Part shown: piece by piece, positions 14,408 to 29,337 of the stretch
Layout: every line of letters begins with the position of its first letter
Numbering within the stretch: the first letter of the stretch is position 1
Assembly (NCBI RefSeq): GCF_988243305.1
Contig: NZ_OZ547136.1
Length of the DNA stretch: 64,000 nucleotides
Reading direction: 5' to 3' (one strand)
Program-made: the position numbers and the translations under genes
Notes under the pieces: generated by a model
What the model saw: only the letters and a program-made list of their open reading frames with translations
What the model was told of the DNA's origin: nothing
Databases searched by the model: none

Positions 14408-15945
<1,538 letters not shown>

Positions 15946-16000
15946 GATGCGCCAGCATCGCATCCGGCACTGGCTCCCAGGCCACGCCAGATGCGCCATG
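15946..16000. repeat. REP-like palindromic element(s)
   Basis: gatgcgccagcatcgcatccggc and a second ccagatgcgccatgctgg copy immediately after the xseA stop; resembles E. coli REP units. Confidence 0.45.
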
Positions 16001-16004
16001 CTGG

Positions 16005-19000
16005 TTACTGGAAGCAGGTCACCAGACCCGGTTTATTCATTAGCGTGATACTACAATCCTGTGCTCCAGTGCCTTCGTCCATTCCACACTGTTGAGAGGA
16101 CAAATAAGGAAAACTTGGTGAAGACGGCCATCCCAGTGAATTAAAAACAGTGTGCAACAACTCTAATTCATTGTATGTCGGTGCATTTTCTATGCTGCCA
16201 CACTGCCTTGCAATATCCCATTTACTGGCATCAATGATATGTGCAGAAGCCCAGTTTTCGTAGTTAATAATCGGTGAGGATACGGGATTAGCCCCGGACG
16301 GCAATTCTGTCGTTAACAACGGTCGATGTAGCGATTTACCATTCACCACTACAGTGTCTGCCATATGTCCCCAAAAGTGCGCCGAGGAAACATTCGGGCT
16401 GGTTGGTACCGTAAAAATAGCGTCCAGCGTGTCTGTCGCGGAAGCGTAATTAGCCAGAGTAACCGTCAGTGGCGTTTTATAACCAGGGGTATTATCCTGG
16501 CGGAGCGTAAAACTTGCCGTCCCATCCGCGCCTGTCATGCCACTAATGGTATTACCGCTTTCACTCAGCGTAACAGCCGAACCAGATAACGGCTGAACGA
16601 TGAGATCGTCCATCGCCACCACATCACCATACAACGTCGCCCCAGCGTTACGCGGCGATGCATCGCCACGTTTCAAAGTAAATTCCACATTCGGTACCGT
16701 ATTCCCGGCGCTGTCTTTCACCGTCACGGTAACGGGCATGGCTTCGCCTTTTTTCACTTTCGCCGCCTGAATAGCTGCGTCAAACGCTGTTGAGGTCAGT
16801 GTGACGCTGGAAACCGTTGCGCGCGCAGACACCAGACACGCCTGATAAGCGGCATTACCATTCAATGTCGTTGTGCCATCTTTCATATTGAGCGACTGAT
16901 TTTTACCATCTGTAGTCTTATCCTGCGCCCACCAGTAATAATAAACTGACCAGCCAGTTTCCGTCGTAAGGGTGTTATTGGGATAACGTTGATACAGTGA
17001 CTTCATATCGCTGAGCAACGGTTGCCGGGCTTCCTCACAAGGGCTGAGGCTGGCATTTGCTTTAGTGGTTGACGAAAAATAGGGCCAGTCCTCATTATTG
17101 TTATTGGTTTTATTTACCCCGGAGGTCGATGGCAGCTCCTTCCACAATTTCGGTCGTTCAAAGACGGTTCCATTTGCCGCTGTCACCGTTTCTGGCATAT
17201 GACCCCAGTAGTCGGCATCCTGGGCGTCAGGGCTGGTGACCACGGTAAATATCAGGTCCAGGTTTGACGTGATCTGCGGATCTTGTGCAAGCGAGACCGT
17301 AAACGGCGTTGCCAGGCCGGTGGTGGCGTTTTGCGTAACATTGAACGTCACTGTGCCATCACTGCCGGTAAAACCAAGCCATTTTGCCGTATCCTGAGCA
17401 AAGGAAATACGGGTTGCTGTCGGTGTGACGACATCTACAATAAGATCATCTGCCAACGATGAGGGCCTAATTCCTGAACGACTTTTCGCCTGCGCCCGCT
17501 GAAGCGTCACGCCCTCACCACTCACCAGGTTGCCATTTTGGTCTTTTACTGTCACGACTAACGGGATTGTCTCGCCCTTTTTCGCCGATGCCGAAGGTGT
17601 GCCGCCGTTACTGGCGGTTTTCGTCTCATCAAATGCTACTGAAGTCAGGGTAACGCTTGACGGCTTAGAGTGAGGCTGTGCCAGGCAGAGCATTAGAGCA
17701 ACCGGAGAGAGTGCGGATGATGCTCGTCCCGTGCTTAGGTTAAAGACCTGATAATACCAGGAGCTACCATTGGAGTTAAGTAATTCATAAATCCACCAGT
17801 TTCCTGACGCTATCGGCAACCCCAGATCTTTCGTTAACGCTCCGTTTGGGTGATCGTCATATAACCCCTGCAATTCGCTGAGGCGCGGTTGATATTCCAG
17901 CGAACAATCTGCCGTCGCTTTTTGAGTACTATATATATATGACCATGTCTCATTATTACCGTTTACCGAGCTCCCCGTAGTCGCTTCCGCTGCCAGTAAT
18001 GGGCGCTTGAAGGTCACGCCTGCCGAACTGGTAAACGTTTCCGGCATATGGCCCCAGTATTTCGCTTTTGGCGAATCCGGGCTGGTTATCACCGTGAAAA
18101 TGACATCCAGCGTGACGCTTTTCGAGGTATCGCGCATGAGTTCTGCGCTGAGCGGCGTTGACAGCCCATAACTGCTATTCTGGCTGACCTCAAACGTAGC
18201 TTTACCATCGCTCCCTGTCTTCAGAAGAGCCTGCGTCCCATCCCCATACAAGATTGACGTTACCCCAGTAGGTTCCACAGGTATGATGGTAAGATCATCT
18301 GCAGAGGCATCGTACGCAGCTTTAGCGCGGTTCAGCGCAGTCCCTCGTTTAAGGTTAAAGCTGGCACCTGGCAGTGGATTGCCTGCGCTATCTCGCACCG
18401 TAACCGTCATCGGGATAACCTCTCCCTTCTTCGCTGTTGCGCTGGGCCTGCCATCATTGCTGGCCGTTTTCGTTGCATCCTCCGCCGTTGAGGTCATTTC
18501 AATAGAAGCCGCCTCTGGATGAGGGTTTACCAGGCACAGCATTAATGCCGAGGTGGTTGAAGACGCTCTTCCACTTGATCCATTTAACAGATAAATATAT
18601 TGATCGTACCAGTTACCCGCATATGCCACCATGTCGTAAGCCCACCAGTAGCTATTTACCGGAATACCCAGATCGGTCTTTATCGCACGACTTGGGTGTT
18701 CGTCGTACAATGCCTGTAGTTCGCTTAACAGTGGTTGATAATGTACATCGCACCCGCTTTTATCGATATCCCCCTTTGTTGCCGATCTCAACACGGCCCA
18801 CTCTTCATTGTCTTCTATAAACGACTGGCCCGACGATCTTTCAGCAGAGAGTAAGGGGCGTTTGAAGGCAGTACCAGAACGCGTAGTGAACGTTTCCGCC
18901 ATATGCCCCCAGTAACTTGCCAGGGGGGTATCCGGGCTGGTTATCACGGTAAACATCACGGGTAATTTGTTGGATTCCAGGCTCGACTGATAGGCCTGAG

Positions 19001-22000
19001 CGTACACATTGGTTACCAGGCCTATAGAATCATCCTGCTTTACCGTAAACGTGGCTGTCCCGTCTGCACCTGTCACCGCATAAAGGGAGATTGATGGAGT
19101 ATCCACTCTTGCCGACGTTCCCGCAGCGTTGATTACAGAGATAGTTCTGTTCGACAACTGTACATTCTGGCGATTTGTCGATCCTTCACGTTTGAGAATA
19201 AACGGAACATTTGGTACGACATTTCCCTGCGCATCTTTTGTCACCACGCGAATCACCGCGTCGTCACCTTTTTTCCGTTTTAGTGCGCTGAGGGTTTCGT
19301 CAACTTTGACAAATTGTGTCGCATCGTTCGCTTCAACAATAATGTGGCTGGTCACCGCCACTGGGGTAGCCCGACAACTTAGCAGTCCTATACTGCTTGA
19401 CATGACCTCCGTTCCATCACCCGTTTTTAACGAAACCGCTTTAAAATTAAATGTTTGAGTGTAATAGGCAACAACCGTACTGGAGATATAGGCGCGTGAT
19501 ACAGGCCATCCCGTAACGTCATGTATTGGCACGTAACCTTCATCGGCATACAGTGACTCCAGCTCACTTTCAATCGGGACATATCCTGCACCGCAACCAT
19601 TTACAGATGTGTTGTTCGACTGGTCCGGCGAGAACAGTGACCAGCTCTCTCCATCTTCCTGAAAAGAGCTTCGACTGGTTGTAACGGAAAGCTCATCTTG
19701 CAATAACGGTCTTTTATAAATAAGCCCGCCTGCACCGGTCATCGTTTCGGCCATATGCCCCCAGAATTTTGCTTTAGGGGTATCGGGGCTGGTTATCACC
19801 GTAAAGACTACCGGAAGCATTGATTTTACGTTATTATCTGTATCCAGCATGGCGGTCAGTTCGGTTTTTAAACCCGTGGTATTGTCCTGTTTCAGTGCAA
19901 GTGTTGTCGTACCATCTGCGCCGGTAACGCCATAAATCAGTGCTGTTGTTGAGGAAAAATTACTCTGCGTGTTACCCCAGGCATCCGTCACGATGAGCGC
20001 GCCTGCTGTCACCGTTGTAGACGCATTTGCCCGATTGACGCTAAGGTTACGTTTAAGCGTAAACGCGGTATTTCCCACCGGGTTACCCTGCGAATCTTTA
20101 GTGGTCACGCGAACCACGACTTCTTCCCCTTTTTTCGCTTTGACAACATTATTCGTACTGTCAAATTTTGTGGGGTCCGCAGCCTCAAGAACGATTTGGC
20201 TAGCCTTGACGATCGGCGTCGTCTGGCAGGTAAGCAGTTCTTTTGTGGCCGATGGAATTATCGAACTGGTGCCTGAACTGAGATTGACGGCCTTGAAGTC
20301 ACGCTGTTCCAGACTACTGCTGGCTGTCGTGCTGGTAAGGTAACTTGAGGCGACGGGCCAGCCCTGAACCGTTTTCATCGCATTGCCACGGTTGGCTTCA
20401 TACAATGACTCCAGCCCGGCCTGAGAGGGAACATATTCACTACCACAACCATTAGAGGATGTGCTTGTCGCCTGAGTTTGGGTAAATTGCGCCCAGTCCT
20501 CATTATCTTCTGCAATCGCTGTTCGACCCGACGTACTGGATAACTCTTTCAACAATAATGGGCGTTTAAAGACCGTTCCATCCGCAGCCGTCACCGTTTC
20601 CGGCATATGCCCCCACATTTTCGCTTTATTGCTGTCCGGGCTGGTGACAACGGTAAAAATGGTATCGAGGGTCGCTTTTTTCGTTGTGTCTGAATAGAGC
20701 GCAGCGGTCAGCGACGTTTTTGTGCCATGGGTATCCGGGCGGGTAATAGTGAGAATTTTAGTGCCATCGCTGCCGGTCATCGCGCTGTATGCTGCGGCGG
20801 TATCATTGAGCGAAGTTTCATCCGCCAGGCCACTATTGATCACAACCGGCGCAACCAGCGCATCACCGCTACCGGCAATGTGTTTTTCGTTTGATCGTGT
20901 ATAACCATCGCCACGCTTCAGGGTAAAAGGCATATCACCCAATGGATTGCCCTGAGCATCTTTTACCGTCACCTTCACCTGTAGCGTTTCGCCTTTTTTC
21001 AGCTTCGCCGCATTTGCTGCCGCGTTCCACTGCGCCGGGTCCACCACTTCCAGCGTAATGCTGCTGGCAGGATTGTTAGCCGTCGTCAGGCAACTGACAT
21101 AAACCGCCGTGCTACCGCCAACGGTCCGCGCGCCATCGTTGAGGGCTATGGTGTAGTAATGCGGCACCTGATCCGCGGGCGAACTGCTCCAGTAGGGCTG
21201 ACGCTGCGTTGGCCAACCGTGTACCGTTTGAACGGCGTTACCGCTGTTAGCATCATAGAGCGCGTTAAGCTGGGAACGGCGTGGGAGCATATTGGCACCA
21301 CAGCCACCTTTACTGGTGCTGGAAGTGTTGGCCTGGCTAACGCGCGACCACACTTCGTTATTTTCCGTTAATGTGCCGTCCGGGCTGGACACTTCCGCAG
21401 CCAGCCGGGGTCGGGCAAAGGTTAATGCATCGACGGTAATCGTCTCATCCATATGCCCCCACATCTGCGCGCCAACCGCATCCGGACTGGTGAGCGTAGT
21501 GAAAATCACATTGTAATTAACAGTATTGGGAATATAGGAGTTTACAGGCGCAATATTCAGCGGCGTCGCTAAGCCCACACCTTGCGGTTGCTTAATTTCA
21601 ACAGTAGCAAAACCCTGCGCATCCGTAGTACCTGCATAGACTAAAGACGGTTGCGATGTTCCGTAGAGCGTGCCATTCATCTCGATTGCGCCGCGGGTTG
21701 GATCATCGAAACCCGTGGTCTGCCCCTGACGATTTTTCCCCATATCTTTCGTGATGGTGAACGCGGTATACGGCACGGGCGCATTATTCAAGGCATTAAA
21801 GGTGCGTACCGTCATGGTAATCGTTTCACCCACTTTAGCCTGCGCTCTGCTGCTTGTGGAAACATCATGATCGGTGTTCGCAGCAATCTGGGCGACCATC
21901 TCATTGCCCGAACAAGAAAGGTAGTTTTGCTTAAAGCCGGAATAGGTGTCGATGTTGCCCGTGGCCAGGTTCACCGACGCGTGCGACGTCTCTTCCACCG

Positions 22001-24047
22001 CACTAAGATACGCTTTTTGCAACGTTGGCCAGCCATATTCGGTGCCGATGACATTGGCTGGATGTGCGGCAAACAAACTGTGCAATGAGCTTTGGCTCGG
22101 AATATGACCTAAACCACACTCAGCCTGCATACTGCTATTCTGATCAAACAGCGCCCAGTCTTCGTTATTTTCCCGCACTGCTCCCAGTTCGTTGTCGGTT
22201 TCATCCGCCAGCCGTGGGCGTTTAAAGATATTATTCGCTTCAATAATGCCTAACATATGTCCCCACATCCGCGCTTTGTCGGAATCAGGGCTGGTGATCA
22301 CCGTAAAAATAACGTCTTTCTCATCCGAGGCGGTAAAATCACTGCGCATTTTCGCGGTGATGTGTGTTTTCACCCCCACGCCGCCTGGCTGGGTCAGCGT
22401 CAGAGAGGCCTCTCCGTTAGCATCAGTGATCCCTTCATAGGTATGGGCGTCAACTTTGCGAACGTTACTGCCACCATCAATTTGTACCGGGTGCGTCTCC
22501 CACGCAGCGTCAGTTTGATTCTTACGGTTAACACCGTCATCCAGATGCAGCGAAAAGTAGTAGTAAGCCAGCGGCTGATCGTTGTTCTTGCTATCGGTAA
22601 TCGTCAGGCGTAAAGAAGCCTCTTCCCCCACCTTTACTTTCATCGCTTTTATCGTCGAATCATAACTGCCCGGCGTCAGTACCAGCTTCGGTTCAACATC
22701 GGGCGCTTCTTTATCGACACAGCTCACAATAAACGTCGTATCGTCCGGTTTTTGCGCTTCGCTGCGGTTCGAAACATCCGCCGCATGGTGCTGGCCACTC
22801 ATCCCCGCCAGTGATGACCAGTAGAAATTACCCTGCATCGGCCAACCAGCCACATCCTGCACTGACGTTGGCACCACCGTCGCCAGCGCACCGAACTGAC
22901 GCATTCCGGGCAAAATGTCGCAATGTTTATCCGCGCCGCTCCAGGTAAAGGTGGACCAGGTTTCATTGTGATCGTTAACCGTACCGTTTTCATTATCGAC
23001 TTCCGCCGCCAGTTTTGGTCGACTAAAAGTGTAATCACGGGCCTTCAGCGTATCGGGCATATGACCCCACATTGTAGCCTGCGGGACATCCGGGCTGGTG
23101 AGGACGGTAAAGATCACTGCCGTTTCACTGGCCTGAGCAATACCCGCGAGGCTCGCGACCAACGGCGTTTTTACACCAAGGCCGTTGGCCTGGGTGACCG
23201 TAACCGTGGCAACACCATTCGCATCGGTAGTACCACGATATTCCGTCGCGGTGGTGGTTAATTCGGTCGTGCCCAGTTTTACCGGCGCAGTATTGTTCAC
23301 TACACCCTGGCGGTTTTCAGCATCTTTGCGTTTGATAACAAAAGGAATATTCCCCACAACATTACCGACGCAATCTTTGGTGGTGACCGTTAACGTGATA
23401 CTGCCGCCAACCGTCGTTTTCGCCGCACCGGAGGATTCGTCATAGCCCGCGGCGCTGACGGAAATAAGGTCACCCTGCGCGGGCGCAATCTTCAGCGTCA
23501 CTTTCTGATCGGCGAGCGTCAGAACACTTTCATAGGGATAGCCCGTCGAGGTGAGTAAATATAACAGCGGCATGGTCTGTTGGGGATCAGGCTGCGCCCA
23601 GGCGACCAGCGAACGCCCGGCAAGTCCCTGAGCGCAAAACGAGCGATCTGCGACTGGCTGTGGGTCCAGTAAGGTGTCCGGCGTCGCGGCATCCGCCCAA
23701 ACTAAAGATACTGTCGGTGGCGTTTGGTTTTCCCAACGTGGGGTGGAAATGATATCGCCTTCTCTGTCTTGCGGATTGGTGACGAGCAATTTAGAGACGC
23801 TAATATCCGCGCTGAATTCACTCGGTTTAGCGGTAAACGCTACCTCATGCGTCTTTGCAGGATCCAGAAAGACACTGCCCTGGTAGACGGGTATGCTGGC
23901 ACTGTCGGCGGTGGGCACGGTACCGTTAAATTCGCCGACCGTATCTGAAGAGTCTTGCCATGCAGATTCTGCCCATGACCGCCCAGGCAGCATTGCGCTT
24001 ATCAGCAATGCGCATAACACAAGGATTTTATTCAGGGTCAGGGACAT
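16005..24047 (-). CDS. ratA: RatA-like giant secreted/outer-membrane repeat protein (Big_1-like Ig domains)
   Basis: 2680-aa ORF with signal peptide [26 protein letters not shown]. Nine copies of a ~200-aa module, each with a Big_1-like segment (KKGE..v.VTVKD..GNpv.n..FtLKR) and a conserved IFTVxTSPD....WGHMxET motif. Sits with sinI/sinH between xseA and yfgJ, like the Salmonella CS54 island. Confidence 0.8.
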
Positions 24048-24119
24048 GACAGAAACTCCACCGGTTGTTAAACGGACGCTTGTCGCATCAACATATTTTG
24101 CTTAATCCGGGATTAAGCA

Positions 24120-24157
24120 AAATATGCGGAAACAGCATTCCCTTGCGGGAATGCTGC
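24120..24157 (-). terminator. putative terminator downstream of sinI
   Basis: Hairpin cagcattccc(24133-24142), loop ttgc, gggaatgctg(24147-24156), 11 bp after the sinI stop; moderately U-rich tail on the minus strand. Confidence 0.45.
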
Positions 24158-24167
24158 TGAGTACGCG

Positions 24168-25145
24168 TTATTTGTGTTTGTAAATAATGTGAAGTTTGTA
24201 CCCCTGTACCCCGTCGCCGTTGGTCGGGATGGTAAGAGCTTCTTTACCATCGCGCGCAGGGCCGTTAAGGTTGGTTCTGGCGTCTTCGTTGGTCGCAGGG
24301 ATGACCAGATTGTTATTATCGAAGCTTGAGTTAACGATACCACCCGAGGTGCCGAGCTGTTGGCTACTCCCAGAAAGTACCCAACGGAAATCATAATTGG
24401 CGGTAACGTCAGCATCGGTACCCGCATCAAACTTGCCGTTTTTGTTCTCATCCGAGTACAGTTTGGCCACGTAGGTTTTGCCAAGTTCGATTGGCGTGCT
24501 GCCGTTGATAAGGTTGATACTGGTACCATCAACAAAGATGGCGACTTTCAGGTTCTGGTTAACCACCGGCCCTGGCGCAACGTTGTCGCTGTCGCTTCCG
24601 CCGCCGCTGGCAGTGGAAATGTCATAAAGATGCAGCGCAGTCCCGACGTTTGGCGTACCGGTCTGCGTGGTTGGCGTAATTTCAATACCGATATAACGAC
24701 CACGGTCGTCATCGGTAAGAGTGTAACTGGTCACCTTCGTTGCCAGCTCTTTTGGATCGTTACCCTGAGCGTCCTTGTAGCTCATCCAGCGGATAGTATC
24801 GATAGTTTTCGCGTTATCGCCCAATACCCCAAGATCCACGTCGCCTTCGGTATCACCAATTTCCCAACTTACGGTTAATTTATCACCCGAGTAAAGACGC
24901 TTGTCCGTTTCACTGCCTGTCGGGCGAGCGCCTTTTAGATCAGAAGTCAACGTTACATGGTCGGCATCTGTCGTAGCGCTTCCCCCTTCCGAATAGAGCC
25001 ACGGAATGGTTCCCTGGAAAATATTGGTTTCGCCGCTGTCGACCCAGGCGCTTTCTTCCGCCAGCGCCACAGGTGCCACACAATAACCTGCCAGTGCCAG
25101 CGCCAATGCGATCCGGGTCAGACCGCGTCTTTTATCCTGCTTCAT
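24168..25145 (-). CDS. sinI: SinI-like secreted protein (paralogue of the SinH C-terminal passenger region)
   Basis: 325-aa ORF with signal peptide (LTRIALALALAGYCVAPVALA). C-terminus VIPATNEDARTNLNGPARDG...GDGVQGYKLHIIYKHK parallels the SinH C-terminus VIPATNREAAQTYGAQAGDGLQGYGLRVLYTKK. Confidence 0.75.
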   Translation of the reverse strand: MKQDKRRGLTRIALALALAGYCVAPVALAEESAWVDSGETNIFQGTIPWLYSEGGSATTDADHVTLTSDLKGARPTGSETDKRLYSGDKLTVSWEIGDTEGDVDLGVLGDNAKTIDTIRWMSYKDAQGNDPKELATKVTSYTLTDDDRGRYIGIEITPTTQTGTPNVGTALHLYDISTASGGGSDSDNVAPGPVVNQNLKVAIFVDGTSINLINGSTPIELGKTYVAKLYSDENKNGKFDAGTDADVTANYDFRWVLSGSSQQLGTSGGIVNSSFDNNNLVIPATNEDARTNLNGPARDGKEALTIPTNGDGVQGYKLHIIYKHK

Positions 25146-25199
25146 TGATGCTCTCCTTAATGAACCTTCAGCGACTGGCCGACTGGCCTTACGCCAATC

Positions 25200-27377
25200 T
25201 TATTTTTTGGTATACAGCACGCGTAAACCGTATCCCTGCAAGCCATCTCCCGCTTGTGCGCCATAGGTTTGCGCTGCTTCGCGGTTAGTGGCCGGAATCA
25301 CAATGTCCTCATTGGAAGTGTTCGCCTGTGCACCCACTTCACCATTGATGCTCTTGCCGGTAAATTCCCACTTGTAGTCGTACTGCGCCATCTCTTCGTC
25401 AGTCAGTTTTTCGACCTGCTGGAAGACACCGTCTTTATTGCTGTCACGCCACAAAACAAATCGATAAGTGTTGTTGAGCGGCAGCGGTTCTTTATCTTTA
25501 CCTATCAGGTTGCTGGGTTTAGCTGCCCCCACACGATAGATAAATGCATTTAGCCCACCAATTTCTGCCCCGAGGAAAGTGACATCCACATAGTTACTGT
25601 CGTCGTAGGGCGCAGCTTTTGCTTTCCAGCGATAGGTGCCGGGTAAGGTACTGGAGAGGGTGACAGTGCCCTTTTCTTTATCTTGTTTAGCGATAAAAAC
25701 GCAGGGGTTGTCGGTCGAGCAAGGCTTGTTGGTTAACGTCACTCGTTTGTCCTGCGCGTCGTAAAGCTGCGGCGTGAGGTTATCTTCCGGCAGCGCATCG
25801 CCATTGCGGTCGGTGTTATCGCCAAAGCTGTCGGTTACATCGAGATCCATCACCACACCATCAACGCCATCTGCCTGAGCGCTGGCTTCGTGGCTGTGGT
25901 TGTTCTCTTCCGGCACGTTCGCGATGTTATTAACAATCAACTCTATTTTACGGTCCTGCTGAACGGTGATTTCCACCACGCCAGAGTTCTGTCGGTTGCC
26001 CTTTTCATCTTCCAGTGCCAGACGTACTCGCCAGGTATTGAGTTTTTCTTGTTCGGCTTTGTCAGAGCTGTACTGCCAGGCGGGCAGCACCAGGTTCCAG
26101 TGGTTATTGTTACCCTCTGTCAGGGTATTCTCTTTGATAACCGGCATAACCAACGTGCGGGCAGCATTGTTTTTCGCCTGCCATGACGCAGCGACAATTT
26201 TGTAGTGGTGGTTGATAAGCGCGTTAATGGTCCACTTACATTTTTCCAGCCCGACGGCCGCTTCGGGAGTGTCCTTAATGACGCACTCAGGGTGCTCGTT
26301 GGTGGCATCCGCTTTTAACCACAGGGTGACATCAAGCGGATCTTTTTCTTTGTATTCCAGAACAATAAAGTTATTACGCTCAACAAAATCATGACGACTG
26401 CCCATCAACGAGTGAGCCGCTTTCACTTTATCGCTATCCAATTGATCTTTTAGCGGAACGCCGAACTGATAATTAAGAGTGGCATTAATGCTGACATCGC
26501 TGTTATCTCCGGTCCCCGCTTTATAGTCCGCCCCAACGGTTAGTAATGGCACCGGTTGATAATTCAGTCCAAGTGTTACCGCGTAGGGATCTTTCTCCAA
26601 ATTATCCGTACCAAAAAGGGCGACTTCATCGCCGTAATATTGCTCGAAGACAACTTTGCCCCCCAGTTGCGGATAAGAAGGTAACCAGGCTTCGGCACGA
26701 ATATCCCAGCCGCGCGCAGGGCGTTCTTCATAAAAGCCGAAATCTTCAGAGTCTTTCCAGTCAGAAAGCGGATGATAATAGTTGCCAGAGAATTTTAAAT
26801 AATCAGTCCACGCTTCGCCGCCTAAACCTAAACGGCGATGTCCTCGGGTAAAATCATAATCATAAAATACATTTCCACCCAATAACCATTCATTAAAATT
26901 ATGTCTTACCCCAAGACCAATATTCCCGATTGTACGATCTTCTTTTCGTTGCGCAGAAAATTGACTGAAATAAACAGTGGTTTGATTATCGTACCAGGGA
27001 ACAAAATAATCGATGGAACTGCCATCCAGATCGCCGCCCTGGCCAATGGAGAGGTTCGAACGGACCTTACCGTAGGGAGAGAGAGTGTCTTCAATATAAG
27101 ATTGTGCGGTTGAGATGATTTGACTTTGCAGATAGCTTCTGGCCTGAGATTCCAGCGCCTCAGGGGTCAAGTTTTCAAACCCTTGCGTGGCGGAGTTGAT
27201 GACGTAATCGGCTCCGCGCTCTTTCAGCGATTTACCCTTGTTGGTTTGTTCATCCCGCTGTGCTGCCTGGCTACCTAAATCAGGTAACGATTCGTTTTGC
27301 TTAACATTTATCTCTGGTGCCGCGAAAGCAGCACCAGAGATAAATGTTAGAATAATACAGCGTTTCCATCGCAGCAT
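25200..27377 (-). CDS. sinH: SinH-like intimin/invasin-family inverse autotransporter
   Basis: Track ORF 25200..27407 starts at a TTG. The ATG at 27377 (MLRWKRCIILTFISGAAFAAP, signal peptide) has an AGGGAAAG SD-like sequence upstream. The N-terminal half has the intimin/invasin beta-barrel signature region (GLGVRHNF...NVFYDYDF...GGEAWTDYLKFSGNYYHPLS...LNYQPVPLLTVGADYK), followed by Ig-like passenger domains. Confidence 0.8.
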   Translation of the reverse strand: MLRWKRCIILTFISGAAFAAPEINVKQNESLPDLGSQAAQRDEQTNKGKSLKERGADYVINSATQGFENLTPEALESQARSYLQSQIISTAQSYIEDTLSPYGKVRSNLSIGQGGDLDGSSIDYFVPWYDNQTTVYFSQFSAQRKEDRTIGNIGLGVRHNFNEWLLGGNVFYDYDFTRGHRRLGLGGEAWTDYLKFSGNYYHPLSDWKDSEDFGFYEERPARGWDIRAEAWLPSYPQLGGKVVFEQYYGDEVALFGTDNLEKDPYAVTLGLNYQPVPLLTVGADYKAGTGDNSDVSINATLNYQFGVPLKDQLDSDKVKAAHSLMGSRHDFVERNNFIVLEYKEKDPLDVTLWLKADATNEHPECVIKDTPEAAVGLEKCKWTINALINHHYKIVAASWQAKNNAARTLVMPVIKENTLTEGNNNHWNLVLPAWQYSSDKAEQEKLNTWRVRLALEDEKGNRQNSGVVEITVQQDRKIELIVNNIANVPEENNHSHEASAQADGVDGVVMDLDVTDSFGDNTDRNGDALPEDNLTPQLYDAQDKRVTLTNKPCSTDNPCVFIAKQDKEKGTVTLSSTLPGTYRWKAKAAPYDDSNYVDVTFLGAEIGGLNAFIYRVGAAKPSNLIGKDKEPLPLNNTYRFVLWRDSNKDGVFQQVEKLTDEEMAQYDYKWEFTGKSINGEVGAQANTSNEDIVIPATNREAAQTYGAQAGDGLQGYGLRVLYTKK

Positions 27378-27586
27378 GCACTTTCCCTGTGACAATGATA
27401 CAGTCAAAAATAAGCTTTAATATTGTATCCCTGATTATTCAGAAAGGCATGTCATAAAGAATAAATATATTCTTAATTATTTAAATTAGTGATTTCACTC
27501 AATTACATTAGTTATTCCACTAATAACAGATTGTTTTACCATTCACATATTAAATATAAATGATAAAACAATATATTCACATGATA

Positions 27587-27802
27587 TTAAGCAATAACAA
27601 ATTCAACGCGTTTTTTAGATATTAAACCGTGCCCATGTTGGCAAAAATAGTCCACAGCACCACAAGCTTTTAACACTTGTAACGGCTGATGACACTCAGG
27701 GCAAAGTGCCTGGACGGTAAAGTCTTTGTCGCAAGTTGCACAGTGGGCAGTCTCGCCATTGCGTTCGAGAGGGGTTTTGCAGATTGGACAGTTGAGTGCC
27801 AT
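27587..27802 (-). CDS. yfgJ: zinc-ribbon protein YfgJ
   Basis: 71-aa ORF with two CxxC pairs (CPICKT...CATC and CPECHQ...CQHGH). Confidence 0.85.
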   Translation of the reverse strand: MALNCPICKTPLERNGETAHCATCDKDFTVQALCPECHQPLQVLKACGAVDYFCQHGHGLISKKRVEFVIA

Positions 27803-27864
27803 AAATACTCCTCGCGTGTTATTCGGTTTCCCTCTCCGTGTGGAAAGGGAAACCAGATAAGTGA

Positions 27865-29337
27865 TTACTTACTTTTCTTGATATGCTTCATCAGGCGCTT
27901 ACGCTTGCGCATCTGGGTTGGCGTCAGGGTATTACGCTTGTTCGCATACGGGTTTTCCCCTTCTTTGAACTGAATACGAATCGGCGATCCCATTACGTCC
28001 AGCGATTTGCGGAAGTAGTTCATCAGGTAACGCTTGTAGGAATCAGGCAGGTCTTTCACCTGGTTACCATGAATCACCACAATCGGCGGGTTATAACCAC
28101 CGGCGTGGGCATATTTCAGCTTCACACGACGACCGCGTACCAGCGGCGGTTGGTGATCTTCAACAGCCATCGTCATGATGCGCGTCAGCATAGAGGTCCC
28201 CACACGACGGGTGGAGCTGTCATACGCTTCACGCACTGATTCAAACAAGTTACCAACACCACTGCCGTGCAAGGCAGAGATAAAGTGCACACGAGCAAAA
28301 TCGATAAAGCCCAGACGGAAGTCCAGCGTTTCTTTCACCTGCTCTTTCACTTCCTGGCTCAGGCCATCCCACTTATTCACCACAATGACAAGTGAGCGCC
28401 CACTATTGAGAATAAAGCCCAGCAGGGAGAGATCCTGATCGGAAATACCTTCGCGGGCGTCAATCACCAACATCACCACGTTGGCATCTTCAATGGCCTG
28501 CAACGTTTTGATTACCGAGAATTTCTCTACAGCATCGGTGATTTTGCCACGTTTACGTACGCCAGCGGTGTCAATGAGCACATACTCACGTCCATCGCGT
28601 TCCATTGGAATGTAGATACTGTCACGCGTCGTACCAGGCATGTCATAAACAACAACGCGCTCTTCACCAAGAATACGGTTAGTGAGTGTAGACTTACCTA
28701 CGTTCGGACGACCCACAATCGCCAGTTTGATCGGCAGACTTTGCGGGTCGAAGTCGTCTTCCTCTTCTTCTTCGCCGTTTTCTTCTGCTTCAAATTGCGC
28801 CCAGTATTCGGCGTCTTCGTCGACTTCTTCTTGCGGTGCGAGATCTTCCATCCACGGCAGCAGCACGTGCTCCAGCAGACTTAATACGCCACGACCGTGA
28901 GACGCGGCGATCGGGTAGATTTCCCCTAAACCAAGCGAGTAGAAATCAACCACTGCCTGATCGGGATCCAGACCGTCAGTTTTGTTTGCCACCAGGAAGG
29001 TCGGTTTTTCACGGGAGCGCAGATGTTTAGCAATCGCTTCATCCGCCGGCATCAGGCCCGCGCGCGCATCCACCATAAACAGTACGACGTCCGCTTCTTC
29101 AATCGCCAGCAGCGACTGTTCCGCCATGCGGGTTTCTACACCGTCTTCTGTGCCATCAATCCCGCCGGTATCAATGCAGATAAACTCACGGCCTTCAATT
29201 TCTGCACGACCGTACTTACGGTCACGAGTCAGACCCGGGAAATCCGCAACCAGCGCATCTCGGGTGCGAGTTAGACGGTTAAATAACGTGGATTTTCCTA
29301 CGTTAGGGCGCCCGACAAGCGCGACCACAGGTACCAT
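27865..29337 (-). CDS. der: ribosome-associated GTPase Der (EngA), tandem GTPase domains
   Basis: 490 aa from the ATG at 29337 ([22 protein letters not shown]); the track ORF extends 13 codons further to 29376. Second G domain has [12 protein letters not shown]; acidic linker; KH-like C-terminus. Confidence 0.95.

Follow-up and report, generated by a model that had tools for sequence, protein, structure and literature searches.

A conserved pair of RNA hairpins between sinI and ratA, a candidate processing and stability module of the sinH-sinI-ratA transcript

The stretch of DNA analysed here (contig NZ_OZ547136.1 of RefSeq assembly GCF_988243305.1; 64,000 nucleotides, hereafter the window) belongs to Escherichia coli and carries, on its minus strand, the genes sinH, sinI and ratA, identified from NCBIfam profiles and from the RefSeq annotation of identical E. 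coli DNA. The 120-bp gap that separates sinI from ratA (24048-24167), an intercistronic spacer that is read from right to left, contains a long palindrome and, beside it, a GC-rich inverted repeat. Comparison with the corresponding gaps of other enterobacteria indicates that the palindrome reflects, at the DNA level, a hairpin formed by the sinH-sinI-ratA transcript (window minus strand), and that together with its GC-rich neighbour it makes up a two-hairpin module retained in all 23 distinct gap versions compared, from at least eight genera. On balance, the module would probably work as an intercistronic processing and stability element that governs the ratA part of the message.

An earlier description of this DNA, made from the sequence alone (the original prediction), had placed a near-perfect palindrome with arms of 14 bp at 24095-24123, in a gap of 120 bp between genes that it called sinI and ratA. 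The letters at those positions are exactly as it quoted them, the length of the gap is correct, and the gene names are supported by the NCBIfam matches and the RefSeq annotation. The repeat itself is real, although its size and quality had been understated: the arms are 17 nt long and 100% complementary, with the single unpaired base 24109 between them. No other perfect inverted repeat in the window reaches 13 nt with its arms within 12 nt of each other, and none appeared in 100 dinucleotide-preserving shuffles; hence, the palindrome is not a chance feature. The adjacent hairpin that had also been proposed was found as a 10-bp GC-rich inverted repeat. A region of 146 nt folds with -52 kcal/mol, versus -31.3 ± 3.5 kcal/mol for its shuffles (z = -5.9), and both hairpins dominate the predicted sense-strand fold. 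The elements of the module are as follows (A1 and A2 are the alignments of orthologous gaps described below).

24133-24156, minus strand: hairpin 1, a GC-rich stem of 10 bp with arms 24133-24142 and 24147-24156
24130-24132, minus strand: U-rich linker UUU between the two helices (alignments A1 and A2)
24088-24130, minus strand: hairpin 2 in its full extent, 43 nt (RNAalifold consensus; ViennaRNA)
24092-24126, both strands: palindrome in its full extent, arms 24092-24108 and 24110-24126, centre 24109 (inverted-repeat search)
24114-24121, minus strand: near-invariant core, 5' arm, sense UUUGCUUA (alignments A1 and A2)
24097-24104, minus strand: near-invariant core, 3' arm, sense UAAGCAAA (alignments A1 and A2)

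In the sense direction, hairpin 1 starts 8 nt past the sinI stop codon (TAA, 24170-24168) and consists of the 5' arm CAGCAUUCCC (24156-24147), a GCAA loop (24146-24143) and the 3' arm (24142-24133), with a predicted energy of about -17.4 kcal/mol and with UUU placed directly after it. Hairpin 2 begins two to three U after hairpin 1 and is a helix of approximately 20 bp closed by an apical loop of 3 nt. The linker nucleotide U24130 is at the same time its first basal pair, being joined in the RNAalifold consensus to the A of a conserved GUUGA (U24130-A24088); C24129-G24089, the C24128/U24090 mismatch and G24127·U24091 follow, and then the 17-bp stem of the palindrome. ViennaRNA assigned to it -20.3 kcal/mol and the structure ((.(((((((((((((((((...))))))))))))))))).)). 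Within the paired core UUUGCUUA/UAAGCAAA an invariant G-C/C-G step is flanked by three A-U pairs on either side.

Orthologous loci were located via the SinI protein, whose identity to the window copy descends to 42-48%, and yielded 15 distinct sinI-ratA gaps (the 14 rows of alignment A1 and the divergent locus L021). They come from three E. coli sinI types and the E2348/69 type, S. enterica, S. bongori, E. albertii, Escherichia sp., Citrobacter, Kluyvera, Superficieibacter, Leminorella and three Pseudocitrobacter. All 15 contain both hairpins in the same order, within a common layout: stop codon, 8-20 nt, GC-rich hairpin, UUU(U), long hairpin, GUUGA, a variable A-rich leader, Shine-Dalgarno (SD) sequence and ATG. 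Alignment A2 comprises 23 distinct gap versions, nine of them retrieved from metagenomes by a pattern that required the core. The stem sequences diverge and yet pair, as in hairpin 1, which reads CAGCAUUCCC/GGGAAUGCUG in E. coli and AUACCACUCCCC/GGGGAGUGGUAU in S. enterica. In A1, standard pairs fill 94.5% of the cells, versus 84.8% in shuffles (none of 500 reached the observed value) and 39-49% when the partners were slid, and changes on both sides were seen in 12 of 26 pairs. The larger alignment gave 95.8% of paired cells, versus 37-49% with slid partners, changes on both sides in 13 of 29 pairs, and a covariation score of 0.355, versus 0.173 in shuffles (0 of 500 reaching it) and 0.04-0.11 with slid partners. 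There, hairpin 1 is paired in 97.8% of the cells, with six of its ten pairs changed on both sides, and hairpin 2 in 94.7%, with seven such pairs and a length that stays between 42 and 45 nt in all 23 versions. The same two helices were obtained independently by RNAalifold, with the basal extension of hairpin 2, in which the conserved linker UCCGC pairs with the conserved GUUGA located 3' of the hairpin; it is because of this pairing that both motifs are conserved. Two lineages carry UCAGC in place of UCCGC, and in them the C/U mismatch is closed. Compensatory pairing across homologous loci is the mark of a conserved cis-acting structured RNA, and by this comparison the gap holds one; the structure is old within this operon.

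The comparison also points to the strand on which the structure is selected. In most genera the DNA at hairpin 2 is not a palindrome, and outside the core the helix is maintained by G·U pairs on the sinI-sense strand. On this strand A2 has 73 G·U cells versus 5 A·C, an A·C on one strand being a G·U on the opposite one. The mean energy of hairpin 2 is -20.4 kcal/mol in the sense and -14.9 kcal/mol in the antisense direction, the sense fold being the more stable in 21 of the 23 versions, and a covariance model built on A2 scored 73-93 bits on the sense strand versus 21-37 bits on the antisense strand. The imbalance of wobble pairs and the better sense fold therefore argue for a sense-strand RNA structure and not for a symmetric DNA site. 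It is the sense strand that has been under selection, and the perfect symmetry of the DNA in the window is a peculiarity of one E. coli lineage. The case illustrates how what looks like a perfect palindrome in the DNA of one species can turn out, on comparison, to be an RNA hairpin.

How the module could operate can be outlined from its layout. On the sinH-sinI-ratA transcript hairpin 1, two to three unpaired U, hairpin 2 and the ribosome-binding site of ratA would succeed one another. Hairpin 1 would terminate part of the transcription and/or block 3' exonucleases, favouring the sinH-sinI message, while hairpin 2 would be present on read-through transcripts only and would decide their fate. 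Most likely it would serve as a double-strand-specific processing site, of the RNase III type, whose cleavage frees the ratA segment. Alternatively, an endonuclease acting on single strands might cut within the UUU linker and leave hairpin 2 as a 5'-terminal helix shielding the ratA segment; were the cut made by RNase E, the sinHI message would end in hairpin 1 as its 3' cap, and that of ratA would begin with hairpin 2 as its 5' cap. By either route the module would set the ratio of RatA to SinH/SinI after transcription start, in a direction that is not readable from the sequence. As ratA has its own SD and no detectable promoter, it would be expressed from read-through transcripts. The general idea of a boundary element able to uncouple ratA from sinH-sinI, already contained in the original prediction, is judged correct as an idea.

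Several features fit such a module, namely a helix of constant length and about two turns, its position in an untranslated gap inside a transcript, the GC step within an A-U core, and the presence of another hairpin two to three U upstream. RNase III accommodates about 22 bp of double-stranded RNA (dsRNA), intergenic regions within transcripts are enriched in its in vivo sites, and G-C/C-G is preferred at the two pairs that lie between the staggered cuts (PMC6212723). Hairpin 2 matches the required length (~20-22 bp of near-continuous dsRNA) with 20 stacked positions and one C/U mismatch, and its GC step flanked by A-U pairs is compatible with the cut preference, in a comparison that is qualitative only. 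For the linker, RNase E is described in PMC5222698 as favouring single-stranded sites with a U two nucleotides downstream.

Other observations weigh against a processing and stability module. Above the GC step the helix offers only some 6 bp and the loop, a short length for one half of an RNase III dimer. The U-tract of hairpin 1 is poor: compared with a GC-rich stem and at least five U in the following 8 nt, hairpin 1 has the stem, and its U number three in the window, mostly four in orthologs and from two to five over all of them; with no more than three U there, the window copy is missed by the consensus terminator scan. The E2348/69-type locus has UUACCAGC in place of the U run, and therefore hairpin 1 is not a classical terminator in that lineage. 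The 8-bp core is nearly invariant while the pairs that surround it covary, for which structure alone offers no explanation; a protein, a small RNA or a constraint at the DNA level may be behind it. This invariance holds by construction in the 9 of 23 versions retrieved with the core-requiring pattern, and the loci retrieved via SinI show three single uncompensated core substitutions, one or two in each core arm. The sequences are moreover related by descent, so that the shuffle statistics overstate their independence. A tight juxtaposition of the hairpins is not indispensable, since one lineage carries an insertion with repetitive extragenic palindromic (REP) units between them. Finally, no transcript ends, cleavage sites or expression data were found for the gap, and the steps of the mechanism are all inferred: the supplements of three Salmonella transcriptome studies (PMC6333337, PMC4643027, PMC5001712) and of the RNase E cleavage map (PMC5222698) held no usable entries for sinH, sinI or ratA, and no rnc-dependent cleavage data were found for hairpin 2, the published maps being of K-12, a strain without the locus. 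Hairpin 1 could be a weak, leaky terminator or a 3'-end stabiliser.

Two of the loci just mentioned have particularities of their own. L021 (positions 1469-1583), from a derivative of E. coli O127:H6 E2348/69, is a divergent sinH-sinI-ratA cluster in which both hairpins are retained. The insertion is found in L049 (positions 1590-1800; metagenome contig ERZ827168.75, of an Escherichia sinI type), where about 170 bp with two palindromic units of the REP/PU kind, GCCTGATGTGCTTCGCTTATCAGGCCTAC and GTAGGTCGGATAAGGCGTTAACGCCGCATCCGGCA, lie between hairpin 1 and hairpin 2, with some 13 nt duplicated at the ends (GCAAGGGAATGGT). The arrangement suggests an insertion of the bacterial interspersed mosaic element (BIME) type targeted at the hairpin.

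Arrangements of this kind are known from well-studied operons, and two come closest: rplL-rpoB, with an attenuator and an RNase III site, and rpsO-pnp, with the rpsO terminator and an RNase III hairpin of pnp. The rplL-rpoB region of the E. coli rplKAJL-rpoBC operon combines a partial terminator with an RNase III processing hairpin. As proposed for the sinI-ratA gap, an untranslated space inside the operon holds a leaky terminator and a long hairpin ahead of very large downstream genes, and the step-down in expression is set there. The two have no sequence relationship, the sinI-ratA gap has only 120 nt with its helices 2-3 nt apart, and cleavage and attenuation were shown experimentally for rplL-rpoB, whereas the sinI-ratA module is known from sequence. 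In rpsO-pnp, the rpsO terminator precedes a hairpin in the pnp leader that RNase III cleaves. This parallels the order of a terminator-like hairpin of the upstream gene and then a long helix, and cleavage of the pnp helix decides the stability of the downstream message. However, pnp has a promoter between the two elements and none is detectable in the sinI-ratA gap, the pnp hairpin is longer and irregular, and no autoregulatory protein is known at sinI-ratA. Intercistronic 3' stabilisers, such as the REP sequences of malE-malF and the hairpin after papA in pap operons, show that a stable hairpin after an upstream cistron can block 3' exonucleases and produce differential expression within an operon, a role that would fit hairpin 1. 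Unlike the multi-copy REP, the sinI-ratA element resides at a single locus and forms a fixed pair with a second, sequence-constrained helix. In leaders of the ompA type, a helix located 0-3 nt from the RNA 5' end protects against 5'-end-dependent RNase E, and a cut in the UUU linker would place hairpin 2 in that position; the ompA element, in contrast, stands at a primary transcription start, and the sinI-ratA 5' end is hypothetical.

The distribution of the element was studied with several searches. A 701-bp query around the locus matched 938 of 5426 complete E. coli genomes with 95-100% identity, and a 49-nt query centred on the palindrome found one locus per genome in 946 of the 5426, never on a plasmid, and nothing elsewhere in them, the 'two places' per genome of this search being the two strands of one palindrome. 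The sequence was identical in 767 of these genomes, differed by one base in 171 and was divergent in 8. The two one-base variants inspected (E. coli NU14 and N50) have a sense G to A change at the equivalent of 24092, by which the outermost C-G pair of the 17-bp stem becomes C/A and the perfect palindrome slightly shorter, a common polymorphism. The search for further copies that the original prediction had proposed gave no second copy in the window and this single locus alone in E. coli genomes, and the covariance model found one copy per locus and one in the window. By BLAST, the two-hairpin module had no match in phage records and no true plasmid copies; the plasmid collection (PLSDB) returned only two records, NZ_CP141089.1 and NZ_CP134663.1, which carry the locus, have 4.9 Mb and are evidently chromosomes filed as plasmids. 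The motif is absent from the Salmonella ratA-ratB junction, also in the covariance model search. A pattern scan of metagenome contigs gave 32 stretches, 28 of them sinI-ratA junctions and four unrelated and AT-rich, with a chance expectation of about six, estimated by hand from the length of the pattern and the size of the collection. These results indicate that the element is specific to the sinI-ratA junction.

Two sequence records deserve a comment. A 3.1-kb contig labelled as a metagenome-assembled Collinsella sp., of the Actinobacteria (JAIJJM010000381.1), is 99% identical to the E. coli sinI-ratA region, palindrome included, and is almost certainly a mis-binned E. coli contig. In OOBI01011254.1 (positions 1-1530) the module is intact, the downstream SD, start codon and signal peptide of ratA are missing, and the sequence continues into an open reading frame (ORF) for a SusC-like TonB-dependent receptor of Bacteroidetes; the assembly is probably chimeric, with or without a preceding deletion.

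The element seems not to have been catalogued. No family of Rfam release 15 exceeded its threshold in the gap of the window, the best being microRNA (miRNA) precursor models with 15-18 bits versus thresholds of 49-95, and 10 kb of the Salmonella locus likewise gave sub-threshold miRNA-like matches only; such matches arise because the element is a long hairpin. A literature search found no description of an element in the sinI-ratA gap, the papers giving only the co-transcription of sinH and sinI and the operon/substrate hypothesis.

Explanations of the palindrome at the DNA level, or as a transcription stop, were weighed against these data. Since intergenic palindromes in enterobacteria are often remnants of dispersed repeats or mobile elements (REP/BIME, enterobacterial repetitive intergenic consensus or miniature inverted-repeat transposable elements), and one lineage has a REP-containing insertion in this very gap, the palindrome might be such a relic devoid of local function. 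Its single locus per genome in 946 E. coli genomes and its absence from phages and true plasmids speak against a dispersed repeat, as does its synteny across eight genera with compensatory evolution; copy number and synteny effectively refute this origin, whose probability is practically nil. The original prediction had suggested a second, bidirectional terminator, stopping transcription from either side, and a stable hairpin (-20 kcal/mol) that adjoins another one at the end of a gene would agree with it. Nevertheless, the sense strand continues as GUUGAUGCG and the antisense strand as CGGAAACAG, without a U-tract on either; in orthologs hairpin 2 is followed by GUUGA(A/G/U)..., and the consensus terminator scan calls none in the gap. 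Typical terminator stems have 5-10 bp and are rich in GC, whereas this one has 17-20 bp and is A-U rich, with G-C at five of the 17 palindrome positions (four of 16 pairable). In 21 of 23 orthologs the antisense fold is the weaker one. The two flanking genes share a strand, which leaves nothing to terminate from the other side, and ratA, lacking a detectable promoter, needs read-through. A terminator function of the palindrome is hence highly improbable. The other suggestion made at the time, an operator for ratA, is disfavoured as well, and is retained as a rival because it would account for the nearly unchanging 8-bp core, for which RNA structure alone gives no reason. A dimeric protein would bind the half-sites TTTGCTTA-N9-TAAGCAAA and block or modulate RNA polymerase on its way from sinI into ratA; these half-sites are the most conserved part, symmetric in most versions, and separated by 9 bp in 18 of 23. 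However, the spacing is not fixed (four versions have 8 bp, one has 11 bp), flanks and spacer covary for a pairing that a DNA operator does not need, and the strand asymmetry of the wobble pairs (73 versus 5) and of the folds would be foreign to a DNA site. In addition, the promoter scan finds no promoter-like site between the repeat and the ratA SD, the leader is not conserved, and further core-like sites in the window are at chance level (two matches versus 3.1 expected). To our knowledge, no E. coli regulator motif fits the core (SlyA, RcsB, the PurR/LacI family, NsrR, MerR-type spacers and others were considered). An operator is, on these grounds, unlikely.

The near-invariance of the core may instead reflect recognition of the RNA. 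A specific RNA-binding protein or a small RNA could use the module as its site and control translation or decay of ratA, processing by RNase III or RNase E not being primary. The core and the helix length stay constant while the surrounding pairs covary, and the element is confined to one operon junction, all of which would suit a specific factor. On the other side, the SD and start codon of ratA are outside the hairpin, 30-45 variable nt downstream, the loop sequence is not conserved and has no GGA of the CsrA type, and there is no candidate factor. This possibility, though it has to be taken seriously, is not the expected one. A more daring form, a dedicated sequence-specific RNA switch in which the dsRNA of the core UUUGCUUA/UAAGCAAA is read by a factor that gates RatA apart from SinH/SinI, either a protein or, in the manner of put RNA, RNA polymerase itself, is doubtful; if true, it would add a class of cis-regulatory RNA not seen before and peculiar to the 'two-partner' operons of inverse autotransporters. 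A further proposal involving RNA polymerase is that of a cis-acting processive antiterminator, the nascent two-hairpin RNA making the enzyme resist pausing and Rho-dependent or intrinsic termination over the 8 kb of ratA. The module places two neighbouring hairpins, together some 70 nt, immediately before an unusually long gene, and in this layout it superficially recalls the put RNA of phage HK022, a pair of adjacent hairpins of similar total length (about 70 nt) that acts in cis on its own transcript. Unlike the module, put has no U run after it, and there is no sequence similarity between the two, nor between the module and any phage DNA; hairpin 1 resembles a terminator and not an antiterminator, and ratA is not AT-rich (48-56% GC). 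We regard antitermination of this type as very unlikely.

Some narrower candidates were dropped. A CsrA site was discarded for want of a conserved loop GGA, an RNA thermometer as the ratA SD is not sequestered, and a -35 role for the conserved TTGA as the leader is too short and has no conserved -10. The promoter and terminator scan gave nothing in the gap, and the one promoter-like site that it found inside the ratA start was judged irrelevant. In the metagenome contig L050 (positions 1851-1954; about 32% GC, from an unrelated organism) the core palindrome AAATTTGCTTAGTGTACACTAAGCAAATTT stands directly upstream of TTGACA; the site looks like an operator overlapping a promoter, and its resemblance to the sinI-ratA core is taken as fortuitous.

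A processing and stability module would be of interest for the biology of the operon. The sinH-sinI-ratA cluster is associated with virulence and colonisation in extraintestinal E. coli and in Salmonella, and SinH is a vaccine candidate as well as the proposed export route of RatA-like proteins. With its place at the sinI/ratA boundary, a conserved RNA module provides a concrete handle, accessible to mutation, on the stoichiometry of the three products, and it predicts that ratA is expressed from read-through transcripts only, at a level set after transcription starts. Operon-internal RNA hairpins that partition expression are a known kind of element; what is new is an undescribed structured RNA motif, well supported by its 23 versions, for the enterobacterial catalogue.

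The genes of the cluster and the ratA leader are arranged in the window as follows.

25200-27407, minus strand: sinH, intimin-like inverse autotransporter (ORF list; NCBIfam NF033423, 1483 bits)
24168-25145, minus strand: sinI, SinI-family autotransporter-associated protein of 325 amino acids (NCBIfam NF040711 partner_SinI, 337 bits, cutoff 165)
24048-24087, minus strand: ratA leader, variable and poorly structured, with the SD GGAG at 24059-24056, 8 nt before the ATG
16005-24047, minus strand: ratA-like giant adhesin gene, the downstream cistron, 2680 amino acids (ORF list; NCBIfam NF011844)

The first gene of the cluster is sinH, whose real start is possibly a few codons inside the listed ORF. 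The match of the ratA-like product to NF011844 ('RatA-like protein') covers its residues 1-700, and BIg21/InvE_AD repeats are present in its orthologs. Among orthologs the leader is barely alignable apart from the SD, with an identity of 47-58%. In a genome with identical DNA the gene order is guaBA, xseA, giant adhesin, sinI, sinH, a zinc-ribbon gene and der, and the RefSeq labels beneath the match are 'SinI family autotransporter-associated protein' and 'adhesion domain-containing protein'. Co-transcription of sinH and sinI has been reported (Shea 2022, as cited in PMC12525524), and RatA-like proteins were proposed as co-encoded substrates of the same inverse-autotransporter operon (PMC4943183).

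Other parts of the cluster showed minor features. The 54-nt spacer between sinH and sinI (25146-25199, minus strand) has a small GGCC-AGUC-GGCC hairpin and a strong SD, AAGGAGAG, and no counterpart of the two-hairpin module. Just past the ratA stop codon (16005-16007), there come in order a REP-like hairpin (GCCGGATGCG...CGCATCTTATGG), a short stem with the arms ACGCG/CGCGT and a run of T (15895-15975, minus strand); these elements, in the short gap between ratA and the convergent xseA, are probably an end-of-operon terminator or stabiliser. The GC content is 43-46% across 26000-28000, that is, the 5' part of sinH and the DNA upstream of it, versus 50-56% in ratA, and if the island is silenced by proteins of the H-NS type, this region would be the likely target rather than ratA.

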